64,000 nucleotides of DNA from the NCBI GenBank assembly GCA_050575255.1, contig JBNZDD010013687.1:1004373-1068372 (forward strand), read 5' to 3'. Both the position numbers and the translations under genes were made by a program. This document shows positions 13,045-62,335 of the stretch, in pieces. The stretch comes from Harriotta raleighana. Lineage: Eukaryota. Position 1 is the stretch's first letter. The number at the start of each line of letters is the position of its first letter. The notes beneath the pieces are model-generated. The model saw only the letters and a list, made by a program, of their open reading frames with translations. It made no database searches and had not been told where the DNA came from.

Positions 13045-13353
13045 TAATAATAATAATAATCCTTATGTTTGCTGTAGCGCTTTGCATGTCTTCTAGTCAT
13101 CTCAGGATCAGAATATACTGTAACGTGAATTGGCGGTATATTTGTGTGCGAAATGCAGCAGCTAATTTCACATAGCACTGTCCCACAGACAGTGTGGATT
13201 GAAGTGAACAATTTTATTTTTGTTTTTTTCTAGAGGGATTATTGTCAGGTGTGTGGAGTAATGAAACTTGTCCAAGGTTTTGCTCTGCCGGGTATCAAAC
13301 CCAAGTCTCTCGCTTGCAAGGCGAGTGCTTTAACTACTGAGCTACAGGACTCC
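13045..13353 (-). mobile_element. tRNA-derived SINE, short form, near full length
   Basis: The reverse strand reads GGAGTCCTGTAGCTCAGTAGTTAAAGCACTCGCC...GGGTTTGATACCC (Pol III A/B boxes), with a body shared with other copies and a (TTA)n tail. Confidence 0.85.
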
Positions 13354-16966: not shown

Positions 16967-17059
16967 AATGTGAGAAAAAAACAAGACTTGTTTGCCAGCA
17001 GTCGCCCGATAAATTACTCCAGCCGTTTAAAGAAAAAATGGAAGCGTTTATTGAAAGTG
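16967..17059 (+). CDS. FMN1: Formin-1 FH2-domain exon
   Basis: ttttttccag|AA...AGTG|gtgagt; 93 nt, phase 1/1. Encodes (E)CEKKTRLVCQQSPDKLLQPFKEKMEAFIES, with conserved VC..SP...LQPFK.K.E.F. Confidence 0.92.
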
Positions 17060-25050: not shown

Positions 25051-27766
25051 TGAGGAGGCTTGATTCTTCATAACTTGACAAGAGAAAAATCTGGCTACTG
25101 AATTGTGAACCACAGTGAATTATAAAATGTTTTCAAACATTAACATTGGCCTGTATCCAGTTCTCCGAACACGTCTATTGTGACTTGTTTCACACCATGG
25201 CACTGGTAGCATTGTACTTCTGGATCTCTCCTGCTGTACTCAATATATTACCTTTTTATCTGTGTGAGCTGATGTTTTTGAATGACCCCCGTTGTCTAAA
25301 CAATTTAGATGGGAAGACAATTTGCAGTGGGCAATAGTGGCTTTTGTGGAGCCTGAGAGGGAGAATGGGGAGCGAGGGACGATGTGAGAGATGGGGAGGG
25401 AGTGGAGCCTGAACGAGAACTGGAGATTAAAGATGATTTTGGGTGGGAGACAAATACGGGTAATTAGCATAACCATTGAGGCCACTTTACAATACCAAAT
25501 TTTGGATCTTGCTGCTCAGTCCAGTTTTTGTAGCACTTTTGTAAAACTGCGGTATAAACACAGCACAGGTGCACTGAAAATATATTCCGCAAATACTGTG
25601 CTATCCTAAATAGGTTGCTGGATTGCTCATCTATTTGGAATCTTGCAAAAACAGACCAAGTGATGATTTTTTTAACCAGCTTGAAGGTTTTAGCTTGTCA
25701 AAGTCAAACAATATCCCAATCGTACATTCTGCAGTCCTTATGCCTTCGCTCCTGCCAACCTGTACCTAATACTTTCCAGGATTAGGGAAGCAGGGTGTAT
25801 GTCTCTGGGGAGAGAGTGAGCATTCCATTCCAAAATTCCTTTGCGTTGTGTAAATCTTAGTCTGGTTGGATACTCTTTAAGCATGAAGTGTCCAAAAAAC
25901 ACTCAGTGTGTGAGCAGAAAAACTCAATTCACCAATCAATTGTAAATTAGTGGAAAAGAGGTTTCTTTACAATTAAGGAGATTAAAGTATTAGAAGCCAA
26001 ACCACCTGCTGGAGAGCTGTAAATTTAAAGATTTTATCTTTATTCTATGATGGTGAACCCAAGATTAAAAATTAATCCTTAGTCTTGGGGAAAACATGGT
26101 CAGATTGATGCCTCACTTAAATGGCAGAGAAAGCAGATGCATACTTATGGTGTACTGCCAGGAACTAGACACACACCTGGTAATGATCACTTTGTCGAAG
26201 AAAAATTCACGCATACTCATCCTTTCACTATCAGGTAGCAGGCACTGTGCCCACCACTCTCAAATTCATCATCTGGTCAAATTGGACAAAATGTGAGTGG
26301 AAAGTATTTATGGCCCAATTTAGACCTCAATATCAGAATTCAAATTGAAAGTAGATTGCATTCATGCTGGCCATATAGTACAGATATGTTCCACAAATGA
26401 CTCTGATGAACTCATGCACAGTAGAAAGAATATTAAATGCTGCCAAAGAAAAAATACCTGGTGTAAATGGGAAAAATTGACATTTTTGTAAAATAGTAAA
26501 ACGTATGCAAAGAACAAAGCTATTTTTGTACTCTTGTTTTTAAAGTAGGAGAAACAGAAATCATGCTATTATTAAACAAACAGCAAATCGACTGTGACAA
26601 AAATCGAGAAAAAACTGTGTTCACTAGTTTCTCCAGTAATGATTGATTGAAACTGGATCCTTATTGATAGTGGTTCAAAATTGGTAGCAAAGATCAACAA
26701 ACTTTTTTAAATCACCGCTCATCAAATGCAGATCAGTATCCTAAACTCTGTGACTAATTGATTAGGAACATTTGAAGTTTTACTAAAATGCATGGAAGAT
26801 CAGAGCAATAGATAAAGAGACCTTAAATTAAACTGGATCATGTTAGAATCTGGTTGCTAAAAGGAGAGCATAAAGAGGGGAAAATCTGCAATGAAAATAA
26901 CAGACTAAAATGCTAAAAAGTCAATAATAAACATAAATAACACAGTGATCTTAAAATTATTTATTTTAATAATAAGCATTCACTTATTTAATAATAAGCA
27001 AGGTGGCTGATGAATGTAATAGCAAACACACCTCATACACTGAACACAACAATAAAGGCACTACAAGCATCAAACAACTAATCTATTATAGAACTTCAAT
27101 TACTATAGGCTTGAATTTAAATTGACCTTAGTCTTTAAGACGTAAAACTTTTGGAAAGTTTTTCAATTATTTTTTAATTGAAAAGCTTGTTTACAACAGT
27201 TCTTATGAAGAACTTCACTACTATAGTGAAATAAGCCAATCTGTGGTTTGTCAACAATATATCTTGAGGAACTTACTTATTTACAGCAACAAAAGTAATT
27301 GTTTGATGAGCCAGCATGCGTGGAGCTCATCACTATGCTTTTGAGTATCCAAACTAAATTAAGAATTCCACGCATCCCACCTACATTTGGAAATTCCAGA
27401 GATGTTTGTTGGGATTAAATGCCCACTCTCTCCCTGGAGGGAAGGGAATCCTGCATAACGCCATTACCACACTCACCGGCTGCAGTGCAGTACACATGTG
27501 CAGTGTTCTGTTTGAAGCAAGCGCGGGAAATAAAGTCTTGACCCATCACCGCATGCACACTTACCATCTGCAGTGATTAAGTACTGGATGCACAGTTCAC
27601 TATGGTGTACTTTGTTGAAAAAAGCACAGAAAACAAGATAGTGAGGAGCAGATTTTAACCAGGACAACAGGTAGTAAACACTGTGCTTTTTATTCAACAG
27701 CAAATATTAATTTATCACAATAATAATATTTATTTATGACCATCTGTTATTTTTTGTGATCTACAG

Positions 27767-27818
27767 CAAAACAAGAGCATATGGTAAAAGAAACAGGACT
27801 CCGGGATGCACAGAAAAG
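27767..27818 (+). CDS. FMN1: Formin-1 FH2-domain short exon
   Basis: tttttgtgatctacag|CA...AAAG|gtagtg; 52 nt, phase 1/2, exactly bridging the flanking exon phases. Encodes (A)KQEHMVKETGLRDAQK(S), matching the AK.EH......L..AQKS pattern of FMN1. Confidence 0.88.
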
Positions 27819-28857
27819 GTAGTGCTTACATTTCTAACGGTTACACTCCTTCGTGTGCATATCGATTTGTGTTCAGAGTATATTTTGCCTGATAAATGCA
27901 GGTGATAGTTCCTTTTGAAATGCTAAGAAATTTCAGATATGTCTGACATTTTAGAAGTTTGATAATTATACATTTATTGTTATAAAATCTGTTAATGAAT
28001 AATGCAAATGAAACCATGATCGTGCTTTTGGTTTCTGTTAGCTCACATCGTCAATGCACATAGAAGGGGAAGTCAAGTACACAACAGAATACTATACATT
28101 AAATTAATTTTGTTACTTACAGTCTTCTAACCAGTGATGCCCTAGCTCCTGAAACTCACTCCATGTAGTGCTGGGGGTATGTTGTATTGTCCTTTGGACA
28201 GGACGATAAATCATGGTCCCATTTACCCGTTCAGGAGGACAGTAAAGATCGCATGACCCAATTCCCCAAATAAAATTGCTCATTGACTCCATGACTGATG
28301 GTGGGACAGTGTTGTGTGCAACTGGCTGTCACATTTAACTCACAAAATACAGTCAAGACCCTTTACAGTATATCCTGTGAATCACATTGGGACATCTCAA
28401 GTGATAAGCTGCTATTTCAAATGGAAGGATTATTATGAAACGAGACTCAAACCTTCATTTAAAGAATAACTAATACAGATGCCAAAGGGATAGTGGGTAT
28501 CCTCCACATAGGAGTTGTGACCTCAGCTTGCTAATTTTAGGGAAGTCTACTGTCAACGCAGTAATTTCTAATGGGGTTAATTCACTAATGAAACACAAAG
28601 GTGCAGCCCACCAGCTTCCAGCTTCTCCACTCTGCTGTGATCTACTCTTGAAATGAAAATTTCTCAAGCATCTCTGCAATGTATGTCATCAGCTGTGCTG
28701 TGCACACACTATACTTATTAATACAAGTAGGCATCAGTTTAATGCATGCAGCAACTCATCAACAGACGCCACAGAGTTTCATTGCTCTGTTGCTCCAGTG
28801 AGCACTGTTATTTTCATGTGGACATATTTAGAATCAAAGAATAGCAATTATGTAAGT

Positions 28858-29080
28858 CTAGCTCAGTTGGTAGCACTCTCGCCTCTGGGTCAGAAGGTTA
28901 TGGGTTTAAGCCTCACACCAGGATTTGAGCTCATCATGCAGTTCTGATGCTTCGCTGCTGTACTGACCAAGTTATGTGCTGTGTGCTGTTCAAAGTAATG
29001 GTCATTTGGGTGAGATTTCAAACCAAAGTTCTATTTATCTGCTGGTTTGATTGGATGGGTATCAAAGATACTATGACCCA
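28858..29080 (+). mobile_element. Deu-type tRNA-derived SINE, 5' half
   Basis: TAGCTCAGTTGGTAGCACTCTCGCCTCTGGGTCAGAAGGTTATGGGTTTAAGCC (A/B boxes) followed by a degenerate Deu-like body. Confidence 0.7.
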
Positions 29081-29656
29081 ATGAATTCCTTTGATATTCT
29101 GATAAATTTCCTGGTCACTGCCTGCCACACTTCATGCCTCCCTGTTGCAGAATCAATGCCTCCCCCACCCCACCACCACACCCATACACACACCGCTCCC
29201 CCCTAAACCATTTCCTAGCACCACTTCAAGTCTATCTGCACCAGAAAACAATGATTTTAAGACATTGAACCTCAGCCATTAAGCCATTACATCCAAGAAT
29301 ACCATACCCCACACCTGGACACCGGACCTTTCACTTTTATAACTCTACAGTATGTTTTTGGTGCAAAAGTTGGCCTGTTCATTTTTATGTAAGGGAATAT
29401 TGAAAGAATAAGCATATTTTACTTCACCTTCTATTCAACAATATGATATGGCACTATATCAAATGCAATTGAGGTGACTGGCCCAAAGTTTTTTTTGTTT
29501 TGTTTTCGGCCCTTTGAGAGATTTTTTTCATTAATACGTATTTTCTGCTCTGGATCTTTAGATAAGTGTTCATTGTCCAGAAAAATAATTAGTTTACAAT
29601 TGAGGTCAGGGGGTTGGGGGAGGAATAGAATAAAACAACCAGGCGAAATTTGTAGC

Positions 29657-29828
29657 AAAAACAGAATTTGCTGGGTACACTCAGCAGGTCAGGCAGCACC
29701 AATAGAGAAAGGAAAGTGAGTTAACGTTTTAGGTTCACGACCTTTCATCAAAACACGTTCTGACCTGCTGATTGTTCCCAGCAATTTCTGTTTTTGTTTC
29801 AGACTTCCAGCATCTGCAGTATTTTGCA
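29657..29828. mobile_element. Inverted pair of Penelope-like terminal fragments
   Basis: Arms 29657-29692 and 29760-29795 are reverse complements at 33 of 36 positions. The loop carries a degenerate hammerhead core on the - strand (TTGATGA-aaggtcgtgaacct-AAAACGTTAACT). Confidence 0.75.
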
Positions 29829-29869
29829 TCCTGGAGAAATGTGTGTTCTTGCTTGTGAGTGTGCATACT

Positions 29870-29893
29870 TGTGTGTGTGTGTGTGTGTGTGTG
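29870..29893. repeat. (GT)n microsatellite
   Basis: About 12 consecutive TG units. Confidence 0.95.
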
Positions 29894-31057
29894 GTCATTG
29901 TATGAGAGGACGATTAGGCTGAGCTGTGATGCCTTCCTGGTCAAATAGCCTGCTGACATTTACCTTCTAGCTTCACACATGAAAAATAACACTGTTGTTA
30001 GTAAATGTGGAACTATTCACCAACAAGAGACTAGTACCTCGAGGAAAGAGGAAGTGAAGTAAAGGAAAATAATGTTGACCAAATATTTTGCAGCTCAAGT
30101 ACATTCCTTTGAGTTCAGATGACTCCCTCAGGCACATATGCTCAGTGGGGTGTTTAAATTCTTCTGTAGCAAGTACAAATTATTTTTCTAATTATAGGAT
30201 ATTCTGGGTTTTATTGATTAATAAGCCATAATAAGGTTTGCCAACAACATTCCTATTCTGTAAACTGGAAAAGAATAATTAAACACATTGGAAAGAGAGC
30301 AAAATACAGCATTAGAAAATAAAAGAAAGTTTTTTAGGCATAACCTGTTTGTAACAAACAAATGAATATTTCCCACTTATTGATGAAGTTATCAAACTTG
30401 GTTGTGTTGAGGACTTCAGTTATATTTCTGCAATGAGAATAAAACACGAAGACCTATTTTATCTTTCTTCAGGGAGAATGGTACAAATAATTCCCAGGGT
30501 TACTTATATTTCTTGAATTCTGCTTCAAGAATGGAATGGTTAATCAATCTGTTCATTTACGGTCAGAGTTTTCACAAGAAAATGGTAGGACAGCTTGGTT
30601 CTACATGGAGTTAGAGATAAAGGTTACAAGATTTCAAATCTCACCCTAGTATCAGAAATGTGCCAGGTGAAACTGTCAGCAAATCGCAAAGTTCATTAGA
30701 TATGAGGTGTGGAGAGGGGGATGGGACTTAGACCATGAAATCAGGCTGAAATGCAGCCTCTGACTGTTAGAGAGGACAATAGATGTTTTGCCAAATCTAG
30801 TTCAGAGATGGGGTGAATCATCAGAATGCTATAAAATTGATAGTGAAGGCATTGCTTGGATTCCCTGATAGTGGAACATCAAGAATGCTTTGAACAGTCA
30901 TCAAAGGAAGTTTACTGTCTTCCACAGAAGATTATGTGAAAATACGCTGGACAAAACCCTTTGGACAAAACCATGATTCAGCAGTGCCTTATTTAGGCCT
31001 CCGAGACTGGGTATTGCTTCACTGCTCCTAGAATACACATGTTTCTTCTAAGAAGTT

Positions 31058-32205
31058 AATCATAGAATCCTAGAATTTTATGGCACAAAAGGAGGCCATT
31101 TGGCCCATCTAATCTGTGACGACTCTTTGAAAAGAGCAACTCAATCCCATTGCCCAGCTTTCTCCCCATAACCTAACAGACCCGTTCTCCCTAAATAAAG
31201 ATCTAATTCTCTTTTAAAAGCTGTTATCGAATCGGCCTCCACCACCTTTTCAGGCAATGCATTCCAGATTCGAACAACCCACTGAGTGAAAACATTTCTC
31301 CTCAGCTCCCCTCTGCCTTGTTTTGAAACTATTTTAAATCTGTGACTTCGAGTCGCCTACCAGTGGAAACAGTTTTTCCTTATTCACCCTGTTGAATCCC
31401 CTCATGATTTTATAAACCTCTATTAGGTCTCCTCTCAACCTTCTCTGTTCCAAAGAGAATAAACCTAGCCTATCTAGCCTTTCCCCAGAACTGAAGTCCC
31501 TCAATCCTGATATCATTCTAATAAACCTTCTTTACACCCTTTCCAATGCCTTAACATCCTTTCTATAGTGTGGTGACCAGAATTGGACACAGTACTCCAG
31601 CTGAGGCCTTACCAAAGTTTTATAGAGGTTAGGCAGCACTTCCTGACTTTTGTACTCTATACCCCTATTTATAAAGCCATATGCCTTCTTAACGGCTTTG
31701 TCTACCTGTCCTGCCACCTTCATAGAGTTACTAACATAAATACCCAGGTCTCTCTGTTCCCTCACACCCCTTAAAATTGTACTGTCTAGTCTATATTGCC
31801 TCCCCTCATTTCTTCTCCCAAAATGTATCACCTCACACTTCTCTGCATTAAACGTCATCTGCCATGTGTCTGCCCACTTTACCATTTTATCTACATCTTC
31901 TTGCAGAAGGTTACTATCCTCCTCACCATTTACTATTCTCCCTAATTTAGTATCATCTGCAAGCTTGGAAATTGTGCTCCCTACACCCAAGTCTAGATCA
32001 TTAATATATATCAAAAGGATCAGTGATCCTAAACCGATCCCTGAGGAGTGCCACTGCACACTTCCCTCCAGTCTGAAAAACAGCCGCTCACCACAACCCT
32101 CTGCTTTCTGTCTCACAGCCAGTTGTAGATCCATGCTGCCACTGTCCCTTTAATGCCGTGGGCCTCTACTTTCCTAATAAGCCTCTCATGCAGCACTTTG
32201 TCAAA
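31058..32205 (-). mobile_element. 5'-truncated CR1 LINE with reverse transcriptase remnant
   Basis: ORFs 31532..32134 and 31334..31516 give LIYINDLD...SKLADDTKLG...LQED.D....WADTWQM.FNAEKCEVIHFG...YKTLVRPQLEYCVQFWSPHY...LERV...RRLRGDLIEVYKI. Frameshifted; CR1 terminal repeat at 31058; possible AAGTTA target duplication (31053-58, 32204-09). Confidence 0.95.
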
Positions 32206-33509
32206 GTTACACTAAAGTTACAATGAAGATCACAGTTATACTGTGTTCCTTCTCCAGATTACCTGAACTTGAGTGCAGGCTTTATTCAGTTCAGTGCCTG
32301 GCTGGTAGTCTTCTCCGAAGTTGTCCATTGTTTCAGGTGGAGTGATGAGTCGTGCTTCAGAGCTGCATGTTGCTGCTCCCTGATCAGAACATCTTCCACA
32401 ATTTTGCAATACAAAATCCTGAAAATGACAGAAATGAACAGCAGGTGAAGCAGCATTGAAAAGAGCAAAACTCTTCAACCTTGGTGAACTCTTTCATTTT
32501 CAGATGCTGATCTATTTGTTGTGCATTTACCATCAGCCACCATGTTTTTCTTTTTCTATCAAAAGACCTGTGTTGATGATGCACATTTTCCAACCATTAA
32601 TCGAACATCCCTCAATCATCAGCTCTGCTGATGTCAACTCTTGGTTAAGGCTATCAATGTCTGCTTGATAGCGCCATGTTATCCAAGCTGGGATTTGTAG
32701 TCTGCTAATTGGGATCCAGCCAAGTCTTTGAGCCAAACAAGCATTCAGCATCCATTGGATGTGATGGGTTGAGACAGATAATTACATGAAAATTCAATAT
32801 TATTATATGATTTATATCAGTTTATTAAGGCTTTTTTGTGTAATACTCCTGGTGACTAGTTGATATAACCAAGAATGGGACACTGTTGATTAACTGTTGT
32901 CTTCTAATTGGCTAGAATCCCTCTCTGCCTAATTTATTTTTATTTAATTTATAGATTGACACTGTCATCAGAGTGCAGAGTAAACTACACTATTTGGTAA
33001 AAACATTAGGCTGTCAGAGAAAATTTAAATACTACTACAGTATTTAGAATATTTGTCGAACTGTCTCAAGTTGTAAATATAACAAGTTCTCATATCCCTC
33101 ACATCTGATTGGAGGCTAACTGTGTTAGCTGTCTTCTTATTCTTATTTTTATATCTACAGTGATGTAATAGAGTCTTATTAGCTGGGGCAATCGAGTGCC
33201 TGGCTCCCAACTAAGAAGTTGTTGGTTTAATTTCCAGGACTAAATGTCACTTGGTGCAGCTCGACTTATTTGATTGCATTTGGTCAGTTTTTCATTAGGT
33301 CTGCTGTATACAAATACAAAATGACATTTGTATAGCACCTTTCACGTCACAAAGACGTCCCAAGGCGCTGGTCAGCTGCTAGATAGGCTAGATAGACCGA
33401 ACTGAAAACCATAGTGTCCCATTTAAAGCACAGAACAAATATATATCATCTTACAGAAGCCAATGATTTGTGCCTACTGTTTGTTTAACATGGATTGGTA
33501 ATGACGGCT

Positions 33510-33640
33510 TGTCCAAAGGTCAGCACCTTCAACAATACAGCTCTCCCCCAGCACAGCACTGGAGTATCAGACAAGACCGTGAGGTCAAATTTCCAAGATG
33601 GGCTTTGAATAGACAACCTTCTGATTCAGAGGCGAGAATT
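33510..33640 (-). mobile_element. Deu-type SINE remnant
   Basis: tccaaaggtcagcaccttcaacaatacagc...gcactggagtatcag...caaccttctgattcagaggcgaga, the reverse complement of the 28.86 kb head. Confidence 0.65.
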
Positions 33641-36500
33641 ATCAACAACTTCCCTGATTGTGCCAATTTTTATTTATAGCTACCGTCCCTCCTTGAGGGA
33701 TAACAGGAGCCATTAGCCTACCATTACCAGTAGCCAGGATAGGAAGGTATTTTACGGCAAGGTCTCTGTACATACAAGGTGTGAAATATTTCCCTGACCC
33801 TCCCAGCTCATATCCACTTGTCATACAGAGGATAGCCATGGGAACAACAATTAAAATAAATTTTAATAGTTAGTCATGTTGGGCATTAGAAAAGTAAAGC
33901 ATTGCCTATTTTATAGTGCATTTTTTGCACTTTGCATGCAGCTTCTTGCAAAAAAAAATCTGCGTGACATCTAACCTAATTGTGTTTTATAACAGTATAC
34001 CCTTTCTATAATATTGTGGTTTATGGGACCCCTACAAATGTATGTAGTGGCAAAGAGGTTGTTATACAGCGGGTGATTTATAGGGTTTTTCAATTAATGA
34101 GGGAGCCATAAACAGTGAACGTAATATCAAAGGTTGTGGTATATCAGAGCGTGTTACTTAACTGTATTTTACACAGCTGAACAGTCAGTCTCAACCTTGA
34201 CCAAATATTCTTTGATCCAGTTTGCTCCATGCACATACCTTCCGAATAGGTATCCAAATCTAAATGACCTTTTTCTGCTAACATGCACTTGCAATTTGTT
34301 ATTTTTTCAGTGGCTCCTAAATATATCAGAATTTTATGGGTCATTACATTTTCCCCATTTATGATGTTCACCTCTGTATGACATGCAGGTGTACGTTAGT
34401 TATACAACAAAATGAACTTGGGGTTATTGAGAACATAAATTTCCATTGTGAGAATTTGAGTGTTATTAGTTTAAAGGTATTTTCGTAGCTTTCATGTCAT
34501 ACATGAAAAATGCTGGGTCACATCTTGAAACAGCAAAGCTCAAATTTATTTCATTGCTGGGCTTCAAAAAGATCAAAGATCCTTCTTGTGGTCTATTTTA
34601 AGGACAAATCAAGCTCCCAAGTAGTTCAGGTATCAGAAAAATGCTCCAGATTGTGAACTGCTCATTAATAAAAGATGCTGCATTGTAAAGTATTTAAAGC
34701 CAGAAGAAGAAAATTGGCACTTGCAAGATTCAATGGATTTCACAGCAAGGTAAAAGGATTTGGAAGTTTATACTGTGTAGATTTAATAAAGGGAGGAAAA
34801 AAAATCTTTAAACGCAAGCAAAATTAAAGAGTGAAAAGAGCAAAAGACCTAATGTACTTCCTGCAAACAGTGAGCATATCATAAACCACTGTTAACTCTG
34901 TACATCATTCAAATCTGTCTTGTTGCATAACGTTTCTCGTGAAAATATCAAGAAGCATAATGGCTTGTCGTTTATTAATACAATAATTTTGCTTCAGTTA
35001 AAGGAGTACAAGTTCAGTTTTTATTTTTACATCTGGGGTGTTGATTAATACATATAAAGTGAAAGTAGACATGTAAGTTTGTAACAGTATTACTATGGTC
35101 AATGGAAATTTACCAAATGTAGAGGAGTACTGAAGAGAGTAAAGCTGAGTTCACAATAAGCTTATAAATGTGTTAACTGGAGCTTAAGGAACAAAACAAC
35201 CTGTAAAATAAAAGTAAAACTGCAGTCCAGTAACTTTTGTAAGATCTGTGTTCAACTTGATTGGACTTTTTGAAATTCGTTTGGAGCAAAATCTCTCAGA
35301 TATTCTGTCTCCTGTACTCACTTTATCAGATCTGCATGGAAATTAGGAGCCTTTCGAGCCTTATTCTGCCAGTTAATTAGATCCGTGCAGATAGTTTAAT
35401 ATCATTTCCCTGCCTATTCTCTGTTTGGCTATCACTTTAATTAATTTTTATCAAAGTTTACACATCTATGCAAGGAGATTGTCTATACTTGGCAATATTT
35501 CAATTCATTCCAGTCTATCCTTCACTAAAGTAACTGCAAGGAAAGTTTTAAACCAGAGGACTTTTTTTCTAAAAGTTTATTTTAAATGCATTTGCAAACT
35601 ATTTAAAACTATTAAATGCTACGGAATATGTTGAACAAAATCACCCCACATTAAACCCCAAACAATTTCTCAAGTGAAATCATAAAGCACAGAGTTATAT
35701 ATCTTAAACATTAAATATGTTTTTCTTTAAAAGATCTCTTTAGTTTGTTAAGTGCTATTGAAAAAATATGGTGTTATGCAACTCTGAATCTCAGGTGCCA
35801 AGAATCAATTGTTTGCAATTTTGGTCAAACTGTAAAGTATATTTGTAATGTCAGTCCATGGCTCAAATCCACTTTGCCACAAACATTCAGCTGGCCTCCA
35901 AAAGGACTTCAAAATTTGAAAAAAAAAGTCAATCTGACAGTTTCTATCAGCCCCGTTTGGCTGCTTTCTCCTCAACTGGTTTTAGTAGTTTGACTCATAA
36001 TCCACAACACCTAAACTGTATTGTCTAAGAATAGCCACATAAAGTTAACTGGTTAAACTTTACTGTATATTTCCTATTTTGTAGATGCACTTTCTCCAGT
36101 TTGAACATATTACCATGCTTGTTTTTTGATTATCTGGCGTATTACCTGTTGTATCTCTAAAGCAACACTAGGAGTTGAAGCAGCAAGTCAAATCTTTTTT
36201 TTAAATTGTAATTATATCATAAGGGATATTTTGGAACAGCCACTTCATTGTCCTCTTTGACTCTTATATTAATCGTTCGCTATTTGGGACTTCAAATGTA
36301 TTCTTATGTTCCTTTGTGAGGAATAAAAAGATGCTTGGAAGCATATAACTCGAGTACACCTCATTAAAATTCTTGTGTTGTCCTGCCAATATTTGGGCAA
36401 ATTTATGCCACTGTTGGAACACGTTCACAGCAATCAGGTTGTCTCAAATTTGGACTTTTTTTGATTTCTCACTCAATGGTGTAAGAGTACCCTGCAATTG

Positions 36501-36787
36501 TGGTTCAGCAGCTCAGTGGTTAGAGCACTCGTCTTACAAGCAAGAGACCTGGGTTCAATTCACGGCAGGGCGAAACCTTTGGTGAGTTTCCTTACTCCAC
36601 ATCGCTAATAAGCATCCCTCAAAAAAAAATGGTCATTTCAAACCACAACTGTTTGTAGGAGATATCTGTGTGTGAATGGTGTGCCACGTTTTGCCCACAA
36701 ATGTACAGTCAATTCACTTTTACAGTATATTCTGTGATGTCTAGAAGACGTGAAAAGCACCATATCAAATGCAAGGATTATTATTAT
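36501..36787 (+). mobile_element. tRNA-derived SINE, short form
   Basis: AGCTCAGTGGTTAGAGCACTCG...GGGTTCAATTC (A/B boxes), body shared with other copies, and an atcaaatgcaaggattattatta tail. Confidence 0.88.
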
Positions 36788-39700
36788 GACACAATGCCAT
36801 AAGTGCATAGCAAACAAATTACAACAACCATTTAATCTGTATGGCAAATCTGCATCGGGTTTTAATAACCTATATGATTAGATTAGAACAAACAAAAAGC
36901 CTTGTAACATACTACATTTAATAAGGTAATTGATCCAATGTGCTGTGAATATTAATCCGCTCTTATTGAACTTAAAACTCACTCTGTATTTTGCAAAATG
37001 CTCAACTCTATCAGAGTTTCAGAAATTAGGTTATGCACATGCGCTTTGAATACCAATGGTTGAAATGATGAGAGGAAAGCTTGTAACAGAACCATTGAAA
37101 ATAGCCATAAAAAAGTTCTAAAGGAACTGTTGCTTTGCATTATTGTGAATTCAATGGCCAGGATTGCTCCCTTCTATTGCATCTTTATAAACGTATGCAA
37201 GAATGTCAATGGGTGCAAGTCAGTGAGAGCCTTTAAACTAGACCAGACAAAATGTTGCTGATTCAAATCTTAGCTGGTCCAGAAGCAAAGCCCAATAAAT
37301 GGCCTTACCAACTCTGGGTTAGCAAAGGGAAAAATAGGCAGTGCTCCTACTCTTAATCGCTGTTGATAATAATCCTTTATTCACTTTGTCAAAAAGTGCT
37401 TCACAGGATTTTACTCTGAAGTGTAGTAACTTTGTAATTGTAGGCAAATGCAGCAGCCAATTTCTGCATAGCAATGTCCCACAAACATCCATGAAGGCAT
37501 CAAACAAGTGAGGGCAGAATTGGGCTTGGATGGGATGCTGTGCAGTTGAATTACGTAAAAAATCTCACGACCAAAGCTCACACACTAATAATAGTGGTTT
37601 CACAGCAGTTTATTCTTCAGAACAGGAGGTGAGGATAGGATATTTGGATAAAAAAGAAACATATACTGTATTTTGAAACTGTAATTGATCTGTCAGAAGG
37701 AATATATGACAAGGACACGTTTCAGGGCATTTAATCACACCATAGTTTTACATGAGTGGTTGTGTTTGGTGCTGTTTTAGAGCACTGAGCTGAGCATGTT
37801 GGCAGGTCTAGAAAGAATTAAGATAACAACTTGAATAATAGGGCTGAGTTTTGCTCAACTGTTTGTTGAGAATGTTCCCAATAATATTGTTTGAAATTTC
37901 TGTGTTACATAATAAGAATTGATATCATTCAGTCAACCGATACAAGCAGGATTAACTGACTGGTGAGCTGCGGAGCTTGATCTTAGATATTTCAATGGGA
38001 GTCAAAAGCTTTGCAGTTTGATATATCAGGCCACCCAGCAATGTCTTTCCTGTAAATTAAGAGATGTTTGGTGCAATTCTGTTTTTAAGATGCTAGGATA
38101 TCTAGGTCTGAAAATTTCCATCCTTTGAATTGTTTAGAACACAGATTGTCATTTAAATCTCGCCTGCAAATCCCCGATGCAGTTTATGCCCATGGATAAT
38201 GACATTGGCCAGAATGTATATGTTATTTTCAAGTGGTAATGCTTTCAGAGCATAGAAACTGCCCTGATATTTATTCCCATAATGATATTTGTGTCAAACC
38301 ATGGGTTATGTTGCAGATATATTTACAGGTTGAGGAATGTTTTCTGTGATCTACTGCACAATTTCAGATTTTATTGTGTTGGGCTTTAACTGGAGCTTTC
38401 CAGTGCCTTGGGATGTCCTCCTGACATGAAAGGTACTGTACAAATGTAACTTTTGTTGTTGTTATTACTTACTCCCCAAACAGAAGGAAATAAAATTGGA
38501 AGCTGCATCTGAACACTTGGACTGATCTCATGTGGGCATTTACTAAGTGGCTTTGACACAACTCTGATCACAGATTGCAATATCACTTTATTGACTGGCA
38601 AATAAGTAAAAGGGGAATTTTTAAAATCTCTAATGAGAGATCTAAATTGCTCCATTAACATCCCAGCCATCTTCATCAACACTCAAATCTGTTGCAGTTA
38701 AAGAAAGATTCTATTAATTTCAATAACTAGAAATGTAGATGCTGGGTTCACCAATAATTGAACAATAGTGGAAAATATAAAAATTCAGTATAATTTGGAA
38801 GCTAATTTTCCTCAGTTCTTTAAACGTACAAGTTTCTGAATCAAGTTGAATGTGGAATTTTCCACAATTTTGTACCATCTTTCAATTTAAGGCAAAGTGG
38901 TCTCACTGGCTAAAAATAGGTGGAATTTCACCCTCGCCTCACCCGCAGGCTATGTGTTGTCAGCATCATAAAATATTTGCAAGAAAGTGCTGAGTTCCAG
39001 AGTTACAGATTAATAATGACAAAAATGAATATTTTATAATAATAAAATAATAATCCTTGCATTTGGTATAACACCTCTTCGAGACAACTCAAAGTGCATC
39101 ACAGAATATACTGTAAATTGTATATTTTATTCTAGGTGTGCTCCAATGAACCCATTCATATTTTAAGAGCATATGAAAAGAGAAAATATAACCTTGCTAT
39201 CTGTGACAAGTTATTAGCCATGATGCTTATCAAACTATTGCTAAATGTGATCAAGTTAACCAGTCGATAACTAAAGACTTTGTGGATTTGCCTCGACTCT
39301 GTCAGAATGGTTGGACCCAGACTTTTGAACTTATTGGCTCATGTATTGTGGCATTGGAGCAATGGTTAATGGGCACCAGCTTCACTCTGTTTTTCTGTTG
39401 AGTTAATCAGATGTTCTGCTCAGCAGCATTCCAGTGTCACTTCTGGAGTGTTTGGAACGATTCCCCACATCAGAGCCAACTGATAATGAAAGCCTGGAGA
39501 AGTGAGTCTATTCAAGAAACTGCTCGATGCTCAGCATGCTTCCCATCACCCGCTCTACAGCTCTGTTATATAACACAGAAGCTTGAGTTTTTCACAGCAC
39601 TTTTTTTTCTTCACCCCTTGTTAACCAGTTGACCAAGGATGAAATACCTCTTCCTGTAGTGTTTCTCTTTCTACTTCCATTAATCTCATAAGCATGTCAA

Positions 39701-42700
39701 GAGCGAAGCCGTTGCAGGCTCATTATAAGTTGGACTACAGAATGAGATTCTAGATTTATTCATGTGTTACTGTATCCACGTTACTAAATCTCATAACACT
39801 GTTATGTAAGTATTGAACATGAAATCGTATCCTCTTGAATAATAACACAATCAATCACAGTTATTAGCAACATAATTAAGATTATGCAAGTCTGATTTGA
39901 TTATTTTGAAGCTTTTAAAATTCATCTTAGTTTACATATTCCAATGTGAAAGAGTGTTGGAACTGAATGAACAGAAAGCTTAAGAAGTCATTGTCTTAAC
40001 ACACACACGCATTAAGGGTTGAATTCTACAAACAGATTGCGTACATTAATTGAAAATCCTTATCAAATATTGGCTTTGCTCAAATGTTGAATGTAAATTC
40101 AATTGAATTGCCATAAGTGGTGTGATGCTAAGCAGAAAATATGCATACTCTAAAGTTTGCTGTTCATTGTATTTGTAAGAATGGTATTTATGCAGAGAAC
40201 TGGGACATTAGTGACATTGGTGCATATTGCGGCAATCCTGCGATGATTGAGTAGCTGATCTCCATAAATCAATGTTTTGACTTTGGTCACATTGAGTCTT
40301 CATATAGTTTGTTGAAAAAGTTGAGAAACAACAGTAATTAACAATATTTTAAATGATAGATGCGTTTTTTTAAAATAAGAAAATTATTAGCATGAATGGA
40401 ACTTGTAATTTTATTAATTAAGACTGTCAAACAGTTGCTGGACTGTAGGTCTTGAGGAGGAGTTCTGTGAAGTTGAGGATCAATTAAAAAAAAGTACAGA
40501 AACTATTAGAATATCAGGTTTTCTAAGTGTTTGAATCATCTGCCCCAAAAAGTAATAATCCTTACATTTCAAGTAGCGCTTTATCACCTAAGCACTTCAC
40601 AGGATCTCGTGTACTGTGTAATAACTGTATTTTGAAGGCAAAAAGGCCAGTCTTAGAGATGGAAATTGAAAGACAATCTTAAATGAGAATTATGTGCCAA
40701 ATAACAATTAATAATAAAATAATAATCCTTGCATTTGATATAGTGCCTTATCATGTCTTCGAGATGTGATAATTGTTACCAGTTCTCTGGGTGAGCACTG
40801 TTACTTTGCACTGAAATCCACCATCTGAGAGAGGACCAAGGGTAAGAAAAACTGATTAAATTGGTCCCAGGCCACGGACAAATATCATCTGTGATCTGAT
40901 CAAGAAATAATATTAACTATGACATTAGGTAATTCTGTCTTACACTGTTCAATGGTGGAGCATTGAAAGTGGAAAAGTAGCAGAGGGAGACAATATTAGG
41001 GGACCAAATAAAGAGAAAAAAAAGGGAAATTAGAGATATTAATAGACCCAGAAAATGAAAGAGTAACTGTTTGAATTGCAAAGCCATGTGAATGTGCCTT
41101 TATAAATTGTAATATTTAAAAGGAATATTTTATTTATTTGAAATTAAGTAATTGTAATTTTTTATAAACAGGATTGCTTCTGATTTGTGAGCATAACTTT
41201 GAGTGTTTAGAATAAATTGATCTTTCACAGATAATTTAGAGATTAACACTAATGCAATCCTAAAATGTGAGTCTTCTGGTGAAGGGAGCCTTAAGTGGCA
41301 ATTGTATGAAGATTTAAGTTTTAGATTCCTTTCATGTAGCTTTAAGTTATTAGCCTATTCATCACACCAATTACAAGGCACTTTCCCGTGCAGAAGCTAA
41401 CCAGCAATAAAATAAATGTGCGTTATTTATTTTTACACAAACTATAAAAGCAATAAGGTCACAATCATAATTTAAAGATTCTTTAGTTGACTGCACAGGT
41501 GATGAATTATTAATCAAATCAATACACCTGAATCAACTAATAGTTCTTATGTAGACAATTTTATTTTAACAAATTCCTTTGAAATACATTTCACTGCAGA
41601 TTAAAACCTTCTTCATAATTATTTTGTATTTTTACTGCTGTGTAAACCAATCCTGATGGTCTCCATTAAAGTGATGTAGATCTGTGTGTAAATGTTTCAT
41701 GTGCTATTCTCTTGAGGGACAGTAAACTAATCATTGTTTAGTTGCCATCTAATGTGAGCTCCAGGGACTCAAACTCATCACAGCTAGTGAAAATTAAGCT
41801 GTTTAAAATGTTTACCCTATTCTCGAGTAACTTTGAAGATTGAAGAAAGTTGACTGTTTCACAGGGTTTGATGGAGCAGTGGTCTTGTATTACTTCTTTG
41901 TTCATTGAGAAATGTTTAAAATTCTGGTAGGCTGAAAACCTTGGAAAATTCCAAAGTAAAGTTAATGACAATCTTCAAAGTGCTGGTATTTCAAGGAATC
42001 ATTGTGCATTAGCTGAAGCAGTGCGTGAGGCTACTTTAATTATTTAAATGAATGTCTGCCAGGCTGACAGGAGCCATGGAGAAATCTATGGCCATGAAGC
42101 CCCATTTATTACAAGAGGAAGGCAGAAAGCAGCAAAGTTGGGACAATAGGAGGACACAAATACAGTATCTCTTATCAACATCAGTTCAGACATAAAGATG
42201 AAAATAGTTATTTTATACTGAATTGGGACATGGCCAGGAGGGAAAGATGCTTCGCTTTATCTCCGGAGGTGGAGCACTGCAGAGCAGACATGCCCACCTG
42301 ATTCTAGGAGTGTGTGCTCTGCAAAATTAGTCACTTTCCAATGTTATTAAACAAGAACGAATCCACCGAACACAGTTCTGCTAAAATGTATGATGGAATC
42401 AAGCAAGCCCAGTTTGATCCACAGTTAGATTATGAGGATGGGAAACACCATTGCTTCTGAAGTCTCATCACTAGGCGGATCTCCAGAGCGGGGCTCCACT
42501 GTGTATTACACTGTCTGGATCTCCATTTGTAGGCACATGCAATCAAGTCTAAATGCAGCATTAAATCCAAAGAAATATTGCTGTTTTAACATCTTTCTTA
42601 AAATTCCCACCCCCAAAAAGTAAAGTTAGCCCATTAATTCATATTGCTGTTTTCGACTCTTGTAGAAGTATTTGAGTACTAGTTCAGATCAGCAACACAA

Positions 42701-43220
42701 TACAGTATTACAATTCGACTAAATGGCACCTTAGTTGTCAAAGTAAAGCCTGAGTTTAAACAGATGCCAGCTATTTGAAGTACATGAATGAAAGTGTGTA
42801 GTTCAGATTTTATACATGTGTGTTTGTTTACATTGTCTTCCTAGAGACGTTCATTTTTGTAGAGCTTGATTTCTTACTAAAAGTTACGAGGTTGGCACTA
42901 ATGATGCATATTTATTTAACAACATTGGTTTCCCATTATTTCACTTTGGGGTCTCGGTATTAATGTTCAACCCTACAAATATTTGTGTTTCCATTTGTAC
43001 ACAGTTACGTGCTATTTCCAGATATCTCCTCCTGGGAGGACTATAGGTGTTTCAGGGTTACATTATACTTGACAAGTGTTGCTGGAATGAATGTTGAAGC
43101 ACAGGGAAGTTGCAGTAATTACAAAAGTATTGGCTACTGACTTGGGAACAAGCCCTCAGGGAAACTACAGCCACTAGCAAGTTTACGTGTTGACAGTTTT
43201 TTTTTCTCTTTTCCTCTTAG

Positions 43221-43370
43221 CTTTGAAGATGCAACAAGATTCTTTGGCGTGAAGCCAAAATCTGGAGATAAAGAGGTTACTCCAAATTACATTTTCATGT
43301 TGTGGTATGAATTTTCTACCGACTTCAAGAATACCTGGAAACACGAAAGCAAAGCGATTTCTAAAGAAAG
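43221..43370 (+). CDS. FMN1: Formin-1 FH2-domain C-terminal exon
   Basis: Long pyrimidine tract ttcctcttag|C...AAAG|gtaaga; 150 nt, phase 2/2. Encodes (S)[49 protein letters not shown](R). Confidence 0.96.
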
Positions 43371-43399
43371 GTAAGAGGCCGATAAAGTCATTAATAGCA

Positions 43400-44400
43400 G
43401 ATGCTTAGCAGTTTGGAAAGCACTTTGTTTTAAGCTAAATATACCGCACTGCCACATTACACAAGCTTTATTGTTTGTTTTTTTATTAACTTGGCATAAA
43501 GCAAAGTCTAATCCTCAAGGGTATGTTGAAAAAGTTGCCAAAGTCTGCTATACCCACAAGGAAGATAAACACACATAATCTGATAAATTACACTTTCCCA
43601 ACTCTTTTCAATTACCTGCTAATAAAGTGGAATGAGAGCTGTGCTAATTTGTAACAGATTGCTTCACTAGTGCATTTTTATGTTGAACTAGCCTAAATGA
43701 GCTGATATTACTGTCGCAGACAGTACAGACAAATAAAAGTGAATGCTTTTCCAGTTATTAAACTTCACTCGCATCAAAGAGAACCCCCCCAGACCCAGGC
43801 CACACTTAGCACAATGTCAGAAACCCATACTGAATTTACGGCACCACATCTGACCCCAGGTATCCTGCTGGGGACATCAAACTGCGTGACACTGCTTCTC
43901 GCAACAGTCTCCTGATTTTATTGGTTTGAGAAAGAATAACCTTATCCCGTATATGCTTTTAGGTAGGGTTTCATGAAGGAAGTTTTTATGTGAGGGTTAC
44001 ATTACGGCTAAAAGATTGCCATTTTCTCAGTTTAATAGCATAATCTTTTTTTTTACAGTTTTATTCTTTGCTAGGATTCAATATTTCAATTCTGTTTGGA
44101 AATGAATGGTGACCACTGACGATATTATTGTTCAGATTCTATCCTTTGCACAAAGCTTTTTTAAAAAAATGCTTGCGATAGCATGTGAGCTGTTTTATGA
44201 ACTTTCCCTCTTTAACCAGGGATACGGCATTGTTACATTCTAATATTACGGTCACCCATGTGCTCTCTGTATTTTCCACAGTTGTAGTTTTAGTGTGTAA
44301 CTATCACATTATTTATGAACTGTGATGAATAAAACTGTTCTGCAGCAAACACATTGGAGGCATGTAATGAATTAATGCTCTTGATCAATGAATTCTCGTG
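43400..44400. promoter_or_regulatory. Candidate conserved enhancer (Grem1-type limb/fin cis-regulatory module) immediately 3' of FMN1 exon 43221-43370
   Basis: Repeat-free. Motifs: TCF/LEF ATCAAAG 43773, GLI-like GAACCCCCCCA 43781, SOX ACAATG 43811, HOX TTTACGG 43835, RUNX ACCACA 43843, E-box CATCTG 43847, HOX13 TTTTATTGG 43916, TTTTATGA 44193. Position matches the known Fmn1-intronic Grem1 control region; function is inferred. Confidence 0.5.
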
Positions 44401-47231
44401 AGTTGATTTTCACAAATTCATGTTTTAGATGGAAGAGTAAGTGCAAACAAATATTATTTTTGTTCAATGTATTTTCTTGACTTATGCATCTCAATTAGTG
44501 CCTTAAAATACTATACAAGGGAAACCAGATGGATTTAAAATGTTTAATGTCTCATGCCTTAGACACTCTTGGGGAAAGTAAAAAAAAAGTGGAGCTAGTA
44601 TAAAACAGCACAATACTGTTAACTCATTAGGTTCAAAACTCATTTAATAGCGTACTTTTAAACTTTACAGCATATTGTAATCCTAATATGAGAAACAAAA
44701 TGTGAAACAAACGTTTCTTCTTGATGATGTTCTGTAAATATAGAGGTGAGATACCAACCATGCTATTCAACTGTGACTTTGGGTTTAAAGCTAGAGTTTA
44801 ATGAAAAGCAGAGGGATCCATTAGGATACATAACTGAAAATGGGAGTTCCTTGAAATGTTGTAAAACGGGACAGCAGAAAAACATCCACATCTAGAATGT
44901 CTTGTAAAGTCATGACCCTTAGCGACACTGTTTTCCTAAGTGTGAAACCGTTGATTTACCACCGAGTTTACTAGAAATAGGTCAGAATCAAATTAATTGG
45001 GTGTAATTCTGCCATCTCTACTGATGTGGTTTCCCAGTACATTCTAGTACTGCTGTTACCAATGAGTGTGTAATAAACAAAGAATGAATTGAACAAGAAT
45101 TATTGACACCCATTCTTCCATGTTATCTGTAGAAATCAAAAATTAAAGAAACGGTCCCTAGTGTGGTCAAAAGTGCGGGATTACAAATAGTTTTGACACT
45201 GTGTTAAATAAAAATTAAATTGAGGATATAAATCCGATTCACTTCTTGTTTCTTTTTCATGAAGGGTGAAGTGGGGGCGGTGGTGGTGGGGGTGGGGGGT
45301 GTTGGGTGGTAATCATTAAATCAATCAAAGGAATCATTAGGAATGCCTGTCACCAGAGTACATTGTACAGTTTTGGTCATTGCATTATAATGGAGCTACA
45401 CAGCCCCGTAGAGGCAGTGCAGAGGAAAGCACTATGGATAATCCCCATTGTTGGAGGGATGATCTATAAAATACTTGATGGGATTCAGGAAGTGAACCTA
45501 TGGAACAGTACTTTCAGATAAAGTTAGGCAGCAGGGGAAGAGGACAGGTTCAGAGTTTTGAACAGTGAACTGTGTGAACACTGAGTGTTGACAGGATTAG
45601 GCTTAATTGTGAACCCTCACAGCCTGACAATTCTTGCTATCCAGGTTTACTTGAATAGTCAGTTGGGATAGGTACTATACATCCCCTGCTAGATGTGGAA
45701 CTGGAGTATCCTTCTGTGTGAGTTGGTACCTTTTGGAGAGGAGAGATCAATGGAGAAAACTGGGAGGCAAATTGCTTGAGTCACAAAAAAGTCAGAACAT
45801 TAATCATCAATGGGGGTGGACGTAGAGAGAGATGCAGTTTGCATTGAAAGCAGTTCCTTTTACAGTAATCATCTGTATCTTGATGACATAACTAGGGGTC
45901 AAATGGAGTTACAAATCCAGACAGTAGAGATTGTGGAACACGGAAGCTTAAGCAACACTGTCATCTCAAGTACATTTCAAGGAACATAACGTTGGATTCT
46001 AATAAAACTTCAGCAATCCCTATTTAATCAAAAACAGTGGTCAATTTTGCAGTATTTATTCACAGATTTCTTAATTAGCAACGCAGACAGATCTCTTTTG
46101 GAGAACATCAAATATGTCATACTGGTCATTTATGGGAACCCTGTTCTGAAAATAAATTGAGGAACTTCAACACTTTTGTACGGTTTGGGTGTTAAAAAAG
46201 TCATTTAAAAATTTTTTTTTAGTCTCTATATAGTTTCTTACTTAGCAATTCAAATATGTTGAAGTTAAATCCAGAGCTAACCTAGGAAAATCTATGTGTT
46301 CTAATAAAGACATTGTTCTTCCAAACCCATCTATGGGGTCACAGAGGTATTTGCAACCCACCTTAGTAAAACACTAAAAGGTTCACTAACAAAGATGGTA
46401 TTCAAGTCTGAATAATACAGAACTCCCAGGGACATAATGCAGAATATAATTTTAGTTGCTGTTGACTCAAGCCAAGCTAAATCATGCAATTAAACTACAA
46501 GAGAAACAAGCAGCAGTAATAGGTGAAACAAATGCTGTATAATAAGGGTTGTCTTAAGGAGACTGCGATGAAAGGCAACCAGTCATTTCAGACATGAGAG
46601 AGTAGGCGTCTAGTGGCAGACCTTTCACTTGATTTTATAGAGTCTGAATGAAAAGCAGGCTGGCAAAGACCCTGATTACTGTCTCTGTGGGAAAGTATTC
46701 TCAATGTGAAGGGTGAATTGATTCATGCCTGTGATTCTAATGGAATTTTACACAGTGGGAATGTGTTAACTGGGAAAAGAAACATATTTGCACCGCTACA
46801 AAGTATTTGTGCAGCAGAAAATGTCCACATGCAATTCAACAAAACAATTTGCCACTGTTTAATTTTAGTGTTTGTTTTAGTATTTTGCTTAGTTTTATTA
46901 TAAATGTGCAATCAAGCATTTCTATTTTTAATTTAATCTGCAAACCAGTTAAATGTTCCGTAGGTGTGTATTGTACTGAGCCAGCAAAGCGGATGCATTA
47001 ATTGATATTTACTTTCCTAACCTATTTTCTTTGTAAATGGGAAATGATTTGATGGACTTTATAGTGTATCTCATGAGATATTCCAATGACATGATTGAGG
47101 TACTATATCAATTCAAAGGATGCTGATTTACTCTCATATTTTATTGAATGAGCACTGGCTTAGCTCCCTCTCCAATCACTCCAACCACACAGTTGTACAA
47201 TACGAATATGCTTTAGTTTAATAGAGTAATA

Positions 47232-54603: not shown

Positions 54604-55942
54604 TATTTTCTCATTGCCGATTTTCTAACCTACAAACTGTATTTTTGGCAATAATGTGGTTGCCATCGAAAATAATTTACCCAGTGTCCTGGCCAACTAT
54701 CCCCCAGATAAAACTGGTCACTGACTTCATGGCTGTTTGGGGGGTGTTGCACTGTGCAAATTGGCAACCTTGTATGCCAACAAAATACACAGTCACTACA
54801 CTTCACAATAATTCCTTTGAAGCTCTTTGAGACATTTCAACAAAATGATACGGTGCAATATCAAATGCAAGATTATTATTATCAGTATTAGCGTGATACA
54901 AAATATTTTAAGTTGAATTCGTTTCCTGGGTATGTGGCATGTGCGGTATACCGTATTCGGTGGGATTGTTTTTGGCATCTCACTTAGAATGTGGCTTCTG
55001 AGCTATTAAAATGCACAGCCTGCCTAAAGTTTATCAAGTCTTAATTAAAAGGAATGACTCAAGCCTGTTTGCCTATTCCCCCCAGTGATCGAAAAAAGGT
55101 AAAAGAACATTCAGAGTGTCTCTACTTCTGTTGCGATGTTTCACACTGAAATGTGCGTGGTACAGATTTATATTTCAATTCACTTTTACCATGTGGTTAT
55201 GAGTGAGATTACCTGTTTAGTGGAGTTTCTGCAATGGCAAATGATTCTCAACTGGGCTTCTTAACATTTAATATTCATTTGCCCAGCTAATATATTCATA
55301 GCCTTGGGCAATAACCTTACTGTGTATATTTTAGTCTTGCAAGTTTGGAGGACAAAAATGGTCACAGCTGGTAACAAATTACCGTATGCATCAGTTTCTT
55401 TGAAGCATGGAACATAAACTTTGTGTGTGTTAAACAAAGTGTTTCTAATACCTTTCATATACAACTTCTAAAATTCCTTTTGGTATGCTTGTTTTTTTAA
55501 CCATGGTTACATACAGAAATTATGTATAAACAGACAACCAATAAGCTAATACCTTTTACACAGATCTTGTGTGACTGAGGTGAATATTGATTGGTATGTA
55601 ATATAACAGTTAAATGCGCTAATCCATGCAAATTTTGTCTTTAAAAGCCACATTATATAGTTATTCAGCTCCACTGTGATTCTGTTGAAAATTTGTGACT
55701 TCTTCCTAATTTGGAATCTCAGCTTCAAGTAAAATAATATCTAGACTGGAGGCTTTTCAGGTGATTGCAATCAATATACTGTATTTTCCAAGCACAGTTG
55801 CTGAAAGTTATCAACTTGTCAAAGGTTGAAACATTTCCCTGTAGGGAATAGAAAGCTCTTTTTATCTTATTGCAAAGATAGATTAGGTACAATTCTGCCA
55901 TCAAATGTGATACAAACCCAAACATTTCTGGAAAATGTTTTT

Positions 55943-56007
55943 TGGAAAATTAAATGATTTTTGATGGAAAATTAAATGATTTTTGATGGAAAATTAAATG
56001 ATTTTTG
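55943..56007. repeat. Tandem repeat, 22-bp unit x3
   Basis: TGGAAAATTAAATGATTTTTGA starting at 55943, 55965 and 55987. Confidence 0.95.
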
Positions 56008-57739
56008 TTTGAAAATAACACATTGAATGACCTTTATGTAGTCTGACCAGGAATGAATTTTTTAAAAAAAAGACAATATGCTGATCTTAGCAAATCCATC
56101 TTTTTGCATTAAACATTACTGTCAACATTAGCTGTTATTCATATACTTGAGAATCTGACTAATAATCAAGGAACAAACCTGTTGCAGAGCTTCATTCATC
56201 TTACTGTCTAGTTAGACCCTACTAAAATAGTACATATCTGTTCCAACCAACATTCTTGAAAGGTATAACAAATAGCTGAACTATTACATTCCTGTTCACA
56301 TCATGTTTAGCAACTACTTTCCTATTATACAACACTGTTTACTCTATTGGTTGATTTTCAACTAAAAGCTGAATACTGTGACGCGCAAAATCGTTGTCGT
56401 CAGTTCTGGTCAATTGCATTTTACTATCTCTGCATGTGTGTGCATTTACTCCAAATGTTTCCCAATTTACAGAAACTGCAGCCATGTAATTGTGCAAAGA
56501 TTGTTCTCGAGACAATTCCAAATTTACTCCTACTTATCCTTCAGCTGCCAACTCAGAGCAGACGCTTGATAAATCACCCTCTTTCCTTTCACAACAGTTG
56601 CAGAAACAAAACGGATGCTGCTGTTAGTGTGTTTGTGCAAAAATATTGGAACACAGCAAATGGTATTCACCATGCTGTGTTCATATTGGTAAACTCATCC
56701 TCAGCACTGAGGGGTGTTAATTATATTAATTATATTATATTAATTCATATTAAGGACCACTGAGTGACTTATAGTATGCAATCCTATAACAAGAAAGCAC
56801 CACATTTCAGCTATAATTTCAAGGAGAATGAGGGCCCTAACTTATTCAAAGCTGCGGTATGTTTTCAGTAAATTGTATTTCATATTTGCAACATCCCTTG
56901 TAATATGTGGAGTGCTTTAAATTTCAGCCTACTGTAATGTGTTACTTCCTCACATATTTGATATACAGATTAAGAACAAAACAAATTAAATGATTTTTGG
57001 TTGATAAAGCCATGACAAAATTGCTGATTTAACCCCTTACTGCAATTGCTTAGGTTCACAAGAAAACAATCACCTGTGTTTCGCCTTTAGCATAGAATTT
57101 GCTCAAATCATATGACAAAACATCAACTTGTTATTAATTATAATTAGGATTAAATTACCTCTGATAAAGGAGAGTGTAACAAGTGACTATCCTCTGCCTC
57201 TGTTGTGATAGAAGGGCAAATAAAATGTCAAATAATATTTGCTCTCTGTTATTACTATCATAAACAATGGGAAAAGGAAACGTATGTATAATTTCCTAAA
57301 TTATTACCATGTGTATGAAAACAAGCAGGAACACATACCTGTTACTATGAATCAGTATCCAAGATCACAAATCTGGAATAACAGATGAGGTATTATATAT
57401 AGGTATAACACAACCCCAACTGAGCTAAACCTATGATTAGATTGTAATACTGGGGATTAGTGATACCGTTTCCAACAGTAAAGCGCTTAAAAGCCTGATT
57501 TATATTCCCAGATACTAAATCACATGCTCGGGATTGATGAGAGTCGAGAGCATGCACAACTATGCCGACCTCAACAGTAGATCCTAAGCTTTTAATGTTT
57601 CTAAAGACCGTGTCTAATATTACTAAAGTGTTCTGTCTCCTTTGCTTCTTTTAATGCTTGTTTCTATGTTCCATGTCCATTGCTTTCATCCCTTTGAATA
57701 GCGGAAGTATTTTGCACCTTTTTTTTAACCGCCATCTAT

Positions 57740-62253: not shown

Positions 62254-62335
62254 GTTGAGAGAGGCGCAACTCTCTGTAAAGAAGATAACAGCAGAGAAGA
62301 AGGTTGAAACCAAGAAAATAAATCCTAATAGTCTG
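62254..62335 (+). CDS. FMN1: Formin-1 penultimate coding exon (C-terminal tail leading to the FSI motif)
   Basis: aatttcag|G...CTG|gtaaga; 82 nt, phase 2/0. Encodes (R)LREAQLSVKKITAEKKVETKKINPNSL; KKVETKKINP is FMN1-like. No stop codon, so the final exon lies beyond the window. Confidence 0.93.

Follow-up and report, generated by a model that had tools for sequence, protein, structure and literature searches.

The DNA analysed, hereafter the window, is a 64-kb stretch (G000:C13687:1004373-1068372) of a chimaera genome of 1.10 Gb. A tblastn search with four formin proteins placed the 3' coding exons of FMN1 on its plus strand, at 978-1124, 3319-3480, 4891-4950, ~5319-5439, ~16967-17059, 27763-27816, 43221-43370, 62252-62335 and 62908-62949, the last coding exon. 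The third exon from the end (43221-43370) has AG/GT borders and an open frame, and its place in the tblastn exon order makes it the equivalent of mouse Fmn1 exon 22. This numbering assumes that the last exon is exon 24, as the allele name Fmn delta10-24 suggests, and it is supported by the core of the HMCO3 element, which follows the sixth-last exon at a distance of 3 kb, the position published relative to exon 19. The peptide of exon 43221-43370 shares 92% identity with the Callorhinchus milii formin and 76-86% with shark and ray formins. An earlier note on this DNA had proposed an exon at exactly this place, and splice borders, frame and formin identity all agree with it. A Pfam scan of three single-exon peptides gave no family for any of the three, which are too short, so that exon identity was taken from the protein comparison and tblastn.

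Past the end of the window, on the same contig, a Gremlin open reading frame of 172 aa is encoded on the minus strand (C13687:1074930-1075448). This Grem1 coding exon is tail to tail with FMN1, and 27 kb separate it from the enhancer core described below. Its identity to gremlin-1a of catshark and stingray is 92%, and no bony-vertebrate protein among the best 120 of 171 matches exceeds 81%. The formin and gremlin identities agree with a cartilaginous fish and, together with the small genome, with a chimaera other than the elephant shark. A second gremlin-type reading frame of 167 aa, likely Gremlin-2, is located on another contig (G000:C13704:6050659-6050970).

A repeat-poor span around exon 22

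Repeats were mapped by self-BLAST of the window together with seven loci, which masks 10% of the window. The exon 22 equivalent and the enhancer lie in a span free of such matches from 40768 to 47227 (6460 bp), the second longest gap in the window. A genome search with 39000-47000 returned multi-copy matches only near 39.0-39.1 and 40.7-40.8 kb, among the best 40 of 2665 candidates, which is a lower bound. Both searches, at their sensitivity, bear out the earlier statement that 40.8-45.3 kb has no recognisable transposon remnant. Elsewhere in the window, two tRNA-like Rfam matches were found at 13280-13351 (minus strand, 45.8 bits) and 36502-36573 (plus strand, 37.6 bits). Next to both lie copies of the interspersed repeat that is common in the window, and they are likely heads of tRNA-derived SINEs. 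A short tandem array with a 22-nt unit occupies 55935-56016.

Alignment with the published HMCO1 core

The Grem1 enhancer CRM2 is the same as GRS1, and its core element CE is the same as HMCO1 (Malkmus 2021, PMC8455560). Core alignments of HMCO1-3 are printed in PMC3541112 (Zuniga 2012), and a hand comparison with Additional file 1 of that paper matched the HMCO1 core to positions 43546-43713, on the same strand as FMN1 and beginning 175 bp behind exon 43221-43370. The printed multi-species alignment ends at the equivalent of 43713. Identity to chicken was 144 of 168 columns (~85%; 43/48, 47/60 and 54/60 in the successive blocks) and to coelacanth 143 of 168 (40/48, 49/60 and 54/60), while mouse shared 44/60 columns in block two and 41/60 in block three. 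These counts were made by eye from the printed rows, with a possible error of one or two columns; they cover chicken and coelacanth over all blocks and mouse over blocks two and three, leaving aside mouse block one and the other seven species. Orthology of the core does not depend on errors at the level of columns. A run of 30 nt (43636-43665) is exactly common to this sequence, chicken and coelacanth.

The core stretch had a single match in the 1.10-Gb genome, in a search that passes over common words, and the core interval had no self-BLAST match. An Rfam scan of the window gave no match at the enhancer interval or at the HMCO3 copies, and a known structured RNA was thus ruled out at these places. 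In 19 of 24 listed runs (five organisms), part of 43221-44100 was present, with shares of 0.20-0.62 that are silent on which part is conserved.

The arrangement is that of the known CE (PMC3541112, PMC8455560): the same core, exon 22 as its neighbour with the core on the Grem1 side, and Grem1 tail to tail. The distance differs, with 27 kb to the Grem1 coding exon here and ~70 kb to the transcription unit in the mouse. HOX13-type words occur here, and a strict GLI consensus was not found. The elephant-shark and bamboo-shark CRM2 would be the same element in the same fish class; the neighbouring exon peptide, with its 92% identity to C. milii, likely comes from another species than C. milii. The element is already known, its elephant-shark and bamboo-shark copies have already been assayed, and the locus is the expected copy in one more species. 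The earlier note had named 43400-44400, next to the Fmn1 exon, as the best candidate for the most conserved Grem1 module (CRM2/GRS1), and the alignment of the published HMCO1 core at 43546-43713 corroborates this. It had tentatively equated that module with a cluster of motifs at 43773-43924; the interval was correct, but the printed conserved core is the 168 bp upstream of that cluster.

Published properties of CRM2

CRM2 includes Fmn1 exon 22 in every species (PMC8455560, legend of Fig. 4b), and this exon adjoins HMCO1 (PMC3541112). Conservation of CE reaches from fishes to mammals (PMC8455560). The deep conservation of the enhancer is repeated in PMC3787270, PMC8673081 and PMC13121165, and its published age is ~450 million years. 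In mouse limb buds CRM2 is bound by SMAD4 (at limb-bud onset), GLI3 and HOX13; HOX13 and GLI proteins bind CE, and deletion of CE abolishes reporter activity (PMC8455560). Among expressing mouse founders, CRM2 was active in 6/6 for elephant shark, 5/5 for bamboo shark and 9/10 for coelacanth, and activity has also been shown for the mouse, chicken and lizard copies (PMC8455560). Mutation of the Gli or the Hox13 sites disables bamboo-shark CRM2, the Gli sites of that study being called at a loose threshold of p<0.01 (PMC8455560). Fish CRM2, assayed in mouse limbs only, gives there a pattern unlike that of Grem1 itself, which is expressed in the fin buds of sharks (PMC8455560). CRM2 is described as CE plus class-specific extra elements, and a mammal-specific region, ME, is absent from basal fishes (PMC8455560) and is not to be expected in this genome.

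GLI, HOX13, HAND2, WNT and BMP inputs had been listed as established for Grem1 limb enhancers in the earlier note. This holds for BMP/SMAD4, SHH/GLI3 and HOX13, which are shown for CRM2; WNT and HAND2 are not among the inputs shown in the available text of PMC8455560 and PMC3541112. The main text of PMC8455560 has no instance of 'wnt', 'catenin' or 'tcf' and a single one of 'hand2', and that of PMC3541112 has none of 'wnt'. A literature search outside the subscription journals found no primary study of WNT or HAND2 input to CRM2.

A motif block in the probable 3' half of HMCO1

The printed core is followed, 60 bp past its end, by the motif block (43773-43924). Its word matches are the TCF word ATCAAAG at 43773, the SOX word ACAATG at 43811, the MEIS word TGTCA at 43815 and again at 43887 on the minus strand, the HOX words TTTACGG at 43835 and TTTTATTGG at 43916, the RUNX word ACCACA at 43843 and the E-box CATCTG at 43847. 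Thus six of the seven classes claimed earlier for this block (TCF, SOX, MEIS, HOX, RUNX and CATCTG) are indeed present in the stated interval, and GLI was not confirmed.

Published coordinates were used to place the block relative to HMCO1 as a whole. The 520-bp mouse HMCO1 begins 108 bp ahead of the printed core and ends 245 bp past it (PMC3541112), which on the basis of colinearity, assuming no indels, projects onto 43438-43958. The chicken-mouse block of at least 74% identity runs 213 bp past the printed core, to ~43926 here, and the conserved blocks of chicken, opossum and human all extend >200 bp past it (PMC3541112). The motif block ends at 43924, short of both 43958 and ~43926, and so probably makes up the 3' half of HMCO1. 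Mouse amplicon d, which is enriched in GLI3 ChIP (PMC3541112), projects under the same indel-free assumption to 43706-43813, and covers the first 40 bp of the block, its TCF word and a C-run that had been called GLI-like.

The block is followed by a putative tail of posterior-HOX-type words (TTTATG, TTACGG, TTTTAT) at 43984-44335, past the projected HMCO1; its merged sites number 7, the first at 43984 and the last at 44329. The additional TTTATG/TTACG words announced downstream of the block do occur, up to 44329. For TTACGG, 3 of the window's 12 words fall in 43836-44251.

Density of transcription factor words

Consensus words were used rather than a matrix library, and both panels of word classes were composed after the block had been seen. 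For GLI, the scan used GACCACCCA, which we take to be the consensus. No site with two or fewer mismatches was present in 43773-43924, nor in the projected HMCO1 (43438-43958), and a GLI consensus site in the block was rejected at this threshold. Words with three mismatches numbered 9 in 43400-44400 vs 13.6 per kb window-wide; the GLI-like site proposed for the block is matched at three mismatches alone, at the background rate.

With a panel of the six confirmed classes of the earlier note, the block contained all six and was the sole such locus in the 64-kb window. Shuffles reached six classes in 0/2000 cases for the block, in 1/1000 for the kilobase (best 152-bp window) and in 5/60 for whole 64-kb windows. 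With a panel of 20 classes, which includes the six, the block contained eight, the maximum of the window; at least eight were reached by shuffles of the block in 1/2000 cases, of the kilobase in 12/1000 and of 64-kb windows in 47/60. The motif cluster exceeds local shuffles, but an equal cluster can arise by chance in a shuffled 64-kb window. Since the panels are post hoc and chance clusters are frequent in the 64-kb shuffles, the cluster is weak evidence by itself, although notable beside a proven core. The printed core scored at background, with 1/6 classes and 5/20 classes, the latter matched by 220/2000 shuffles, and motif density was rejected as a means of finding this enhancer.

The firmest motif signal in the kilobase is that of the HOX-type words. 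There are 14 merged sites in 43400-44400 vs 3.6 per kb, and no more than 9 in any of 64 fixed 1-kb tiles, two of which split 43400-44400.

The HMCO3 core is duplicated

Two copies of the HMCO3 core, identical over 38 letters, lie at 8560-8597 and 8889-8926, 329 bp apart and 3 kb behind the exon-19 equivalent. This is the published place relative to exon 19, and 25 of the 38 letters (8561-8585) match the coelacanth row exactly (PMC3541112). The available text of PMC3541112 does not mention a chondrichthyan HMCO3; it reports that deletion of HMCO3 in the mouse leaves limb expression unaltered. Four runs were compared. One contig each from organisms A and E spans the spacer between the copies, which rules out an assembly error as the source of the duplication. 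In organism B, a contig passes directly from 8559 to 8889 and has a single copy. Organism D gave no coverage at the copies, which says nothing about their presence. The copies stay identical while their flanks differ by several percent between species, which may reflect either constraint or gene conversion.

The intron that follows the exon-19 equivalent has another conserved non-coding stretch, at 9407-9482 and from ~9624 onward, with a GGCGCC word at 9462 and assigned to no published CRM. It is matched by a contig of organism D, a more distant one, which differs at 12 of 76 letters in 9407-9482 and continues at ~9624.

The HMCO2/CRM3 core was not found in 5440-27762 or 27817-43220, a weak negative that comes from one word search and from two GGCGCC words inspected by eye, whose flanks are unlike HMCO2. 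It agrees with the report that CRM3 is not among the ancient CRMs (PMC8455560). A 12-nt word with one mismatch at 57223 was rejected as HMCO2/CRM3, since it is at chance level (66/100 shuffles) and lies, relative to exon 22, on the wrong side.

Discussion

Homology of the core at 43546-43713, its position behind the exon 22 equivalent and its linkage to Grem1 were observed in this genome. Factor binding, necessity and activity are described for other species and would carry over by orthology. On this basis we consider it highly probable (about 0.9) that 43546-43713 is the ortholog of the conserved CE/HMCO1 core of CRM2 and that, with its flanks, it drives Grem1 in the mesenchyme of the paired fin buds. 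By orthology, this element in an FMN1 intron would act as a long-range enhancer of Grem1. Posterior HOX13 and SHH-controlled GLI proteins, with an early BMP/SMAD4 input, would bind it and switch on Grem1 in fin-bud mesenchyme, and the element would loop over the last two FMN1 exons to reach the promoter of Grem1. Secreted GREM1 would then block BMP and thereby sustain the SHH/GREM1/FGF loop of fin outgrowth. WNT/TCF and HAND/TWIST inputs are putative, each being suggested by single words.

How much of the sequence next to the core takes part is a matter on which several readings compete. The conserved enhancer may be confined to 43546-43713, the motif block being a neutral or weakly constrained flank in which a cluster of words was picked out after the fact. 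The published alignment stops at 43713, the GLI word is background-grade, and shuffled 64-kb windows equal the cluster in 47/60 cases with 20 classes and 5/60 with six. However, the cluster adjoins a proven core, shuffles of the kilobase match it in only 1/1000 (six classes) and 12/1000 (20 classes) cases, the chicken, opossum and human blocks reach >200 bp past the core, and the GLI3 amplicon d projects onto the start of the block, all of which makes such a chance flank rather unlikely. Somewhat less likely again is a reading in which the block would be a working TCF-SOX-MEIS-HOX-RUNX-HAND/TWIST cluster in the 3' half of the core, adding direct WNT and bHLH inputs to an enhancer whose dissection has so far covered GLI, HOX13 and SMAD4 only, and the HOX tail to 44335 the chimaera counterpart of the mammalian ME, confining Grem1 to the posterior fin bud. 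We hold it equally doubtful that block and tail together make up a helper module specific to the clade, which would take WNT/TCF and HAND/TWIST inputs and impose an ME-like posterior restriction in chimaeras. The description of CRM2 as CE plus class-specific elements (PMC8455560) would accommodate such a module, as would the density of HOX-type words, which is highest here, and the repeat-poor span of 6.5 kb. Yet AT-rich HOX words turn up often (3.6 per kb), and the larger part of the block falls within the projected HMCO1, so that it is probably not clade-specific.

A different job for the element, namely expressing Grem1 in a tissue other than fins, or serving FMN1 through its expression or the splicing of exon 22, is suggested by the splice donor 175 bp away and by reporter founders that stain outside the limbs too (PMC8455560). 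One paper places GRS1 in all vertebrates, whereas HMCO1 is reported as absent from teleosts in PMC3541112, a discrepancy that also speaks for another role. In the mouse, however, deletions show Grem1 to be a target of CRM2 in limb buds (PMC8455560, PMC3541112), shark copies respond to mutation of their Gli and Hox13 sites, and shark fin buds express Grem1 (PMC8455560). That the element is kept mainly for such a job therefore appears very improbable, and the reading as a fin-bud enhancer of Grem1 is preferred.

The chimaera locus adds one cartilaginous-fish copy to an enhancer whose age, and whose activity in shark and elephant shark, are published. It provides an extra slow-evolving sequence for footprinting the ancestral CRM2 sites. 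Should the TCF and E-box words turn out to be both conserved and required, the input logic known for the lead Grem1 enhancer would be widened, and this would help to explain why fish CRM2 is broadly active in mouse limbs whereas Grem1 is posterior in shark fins.
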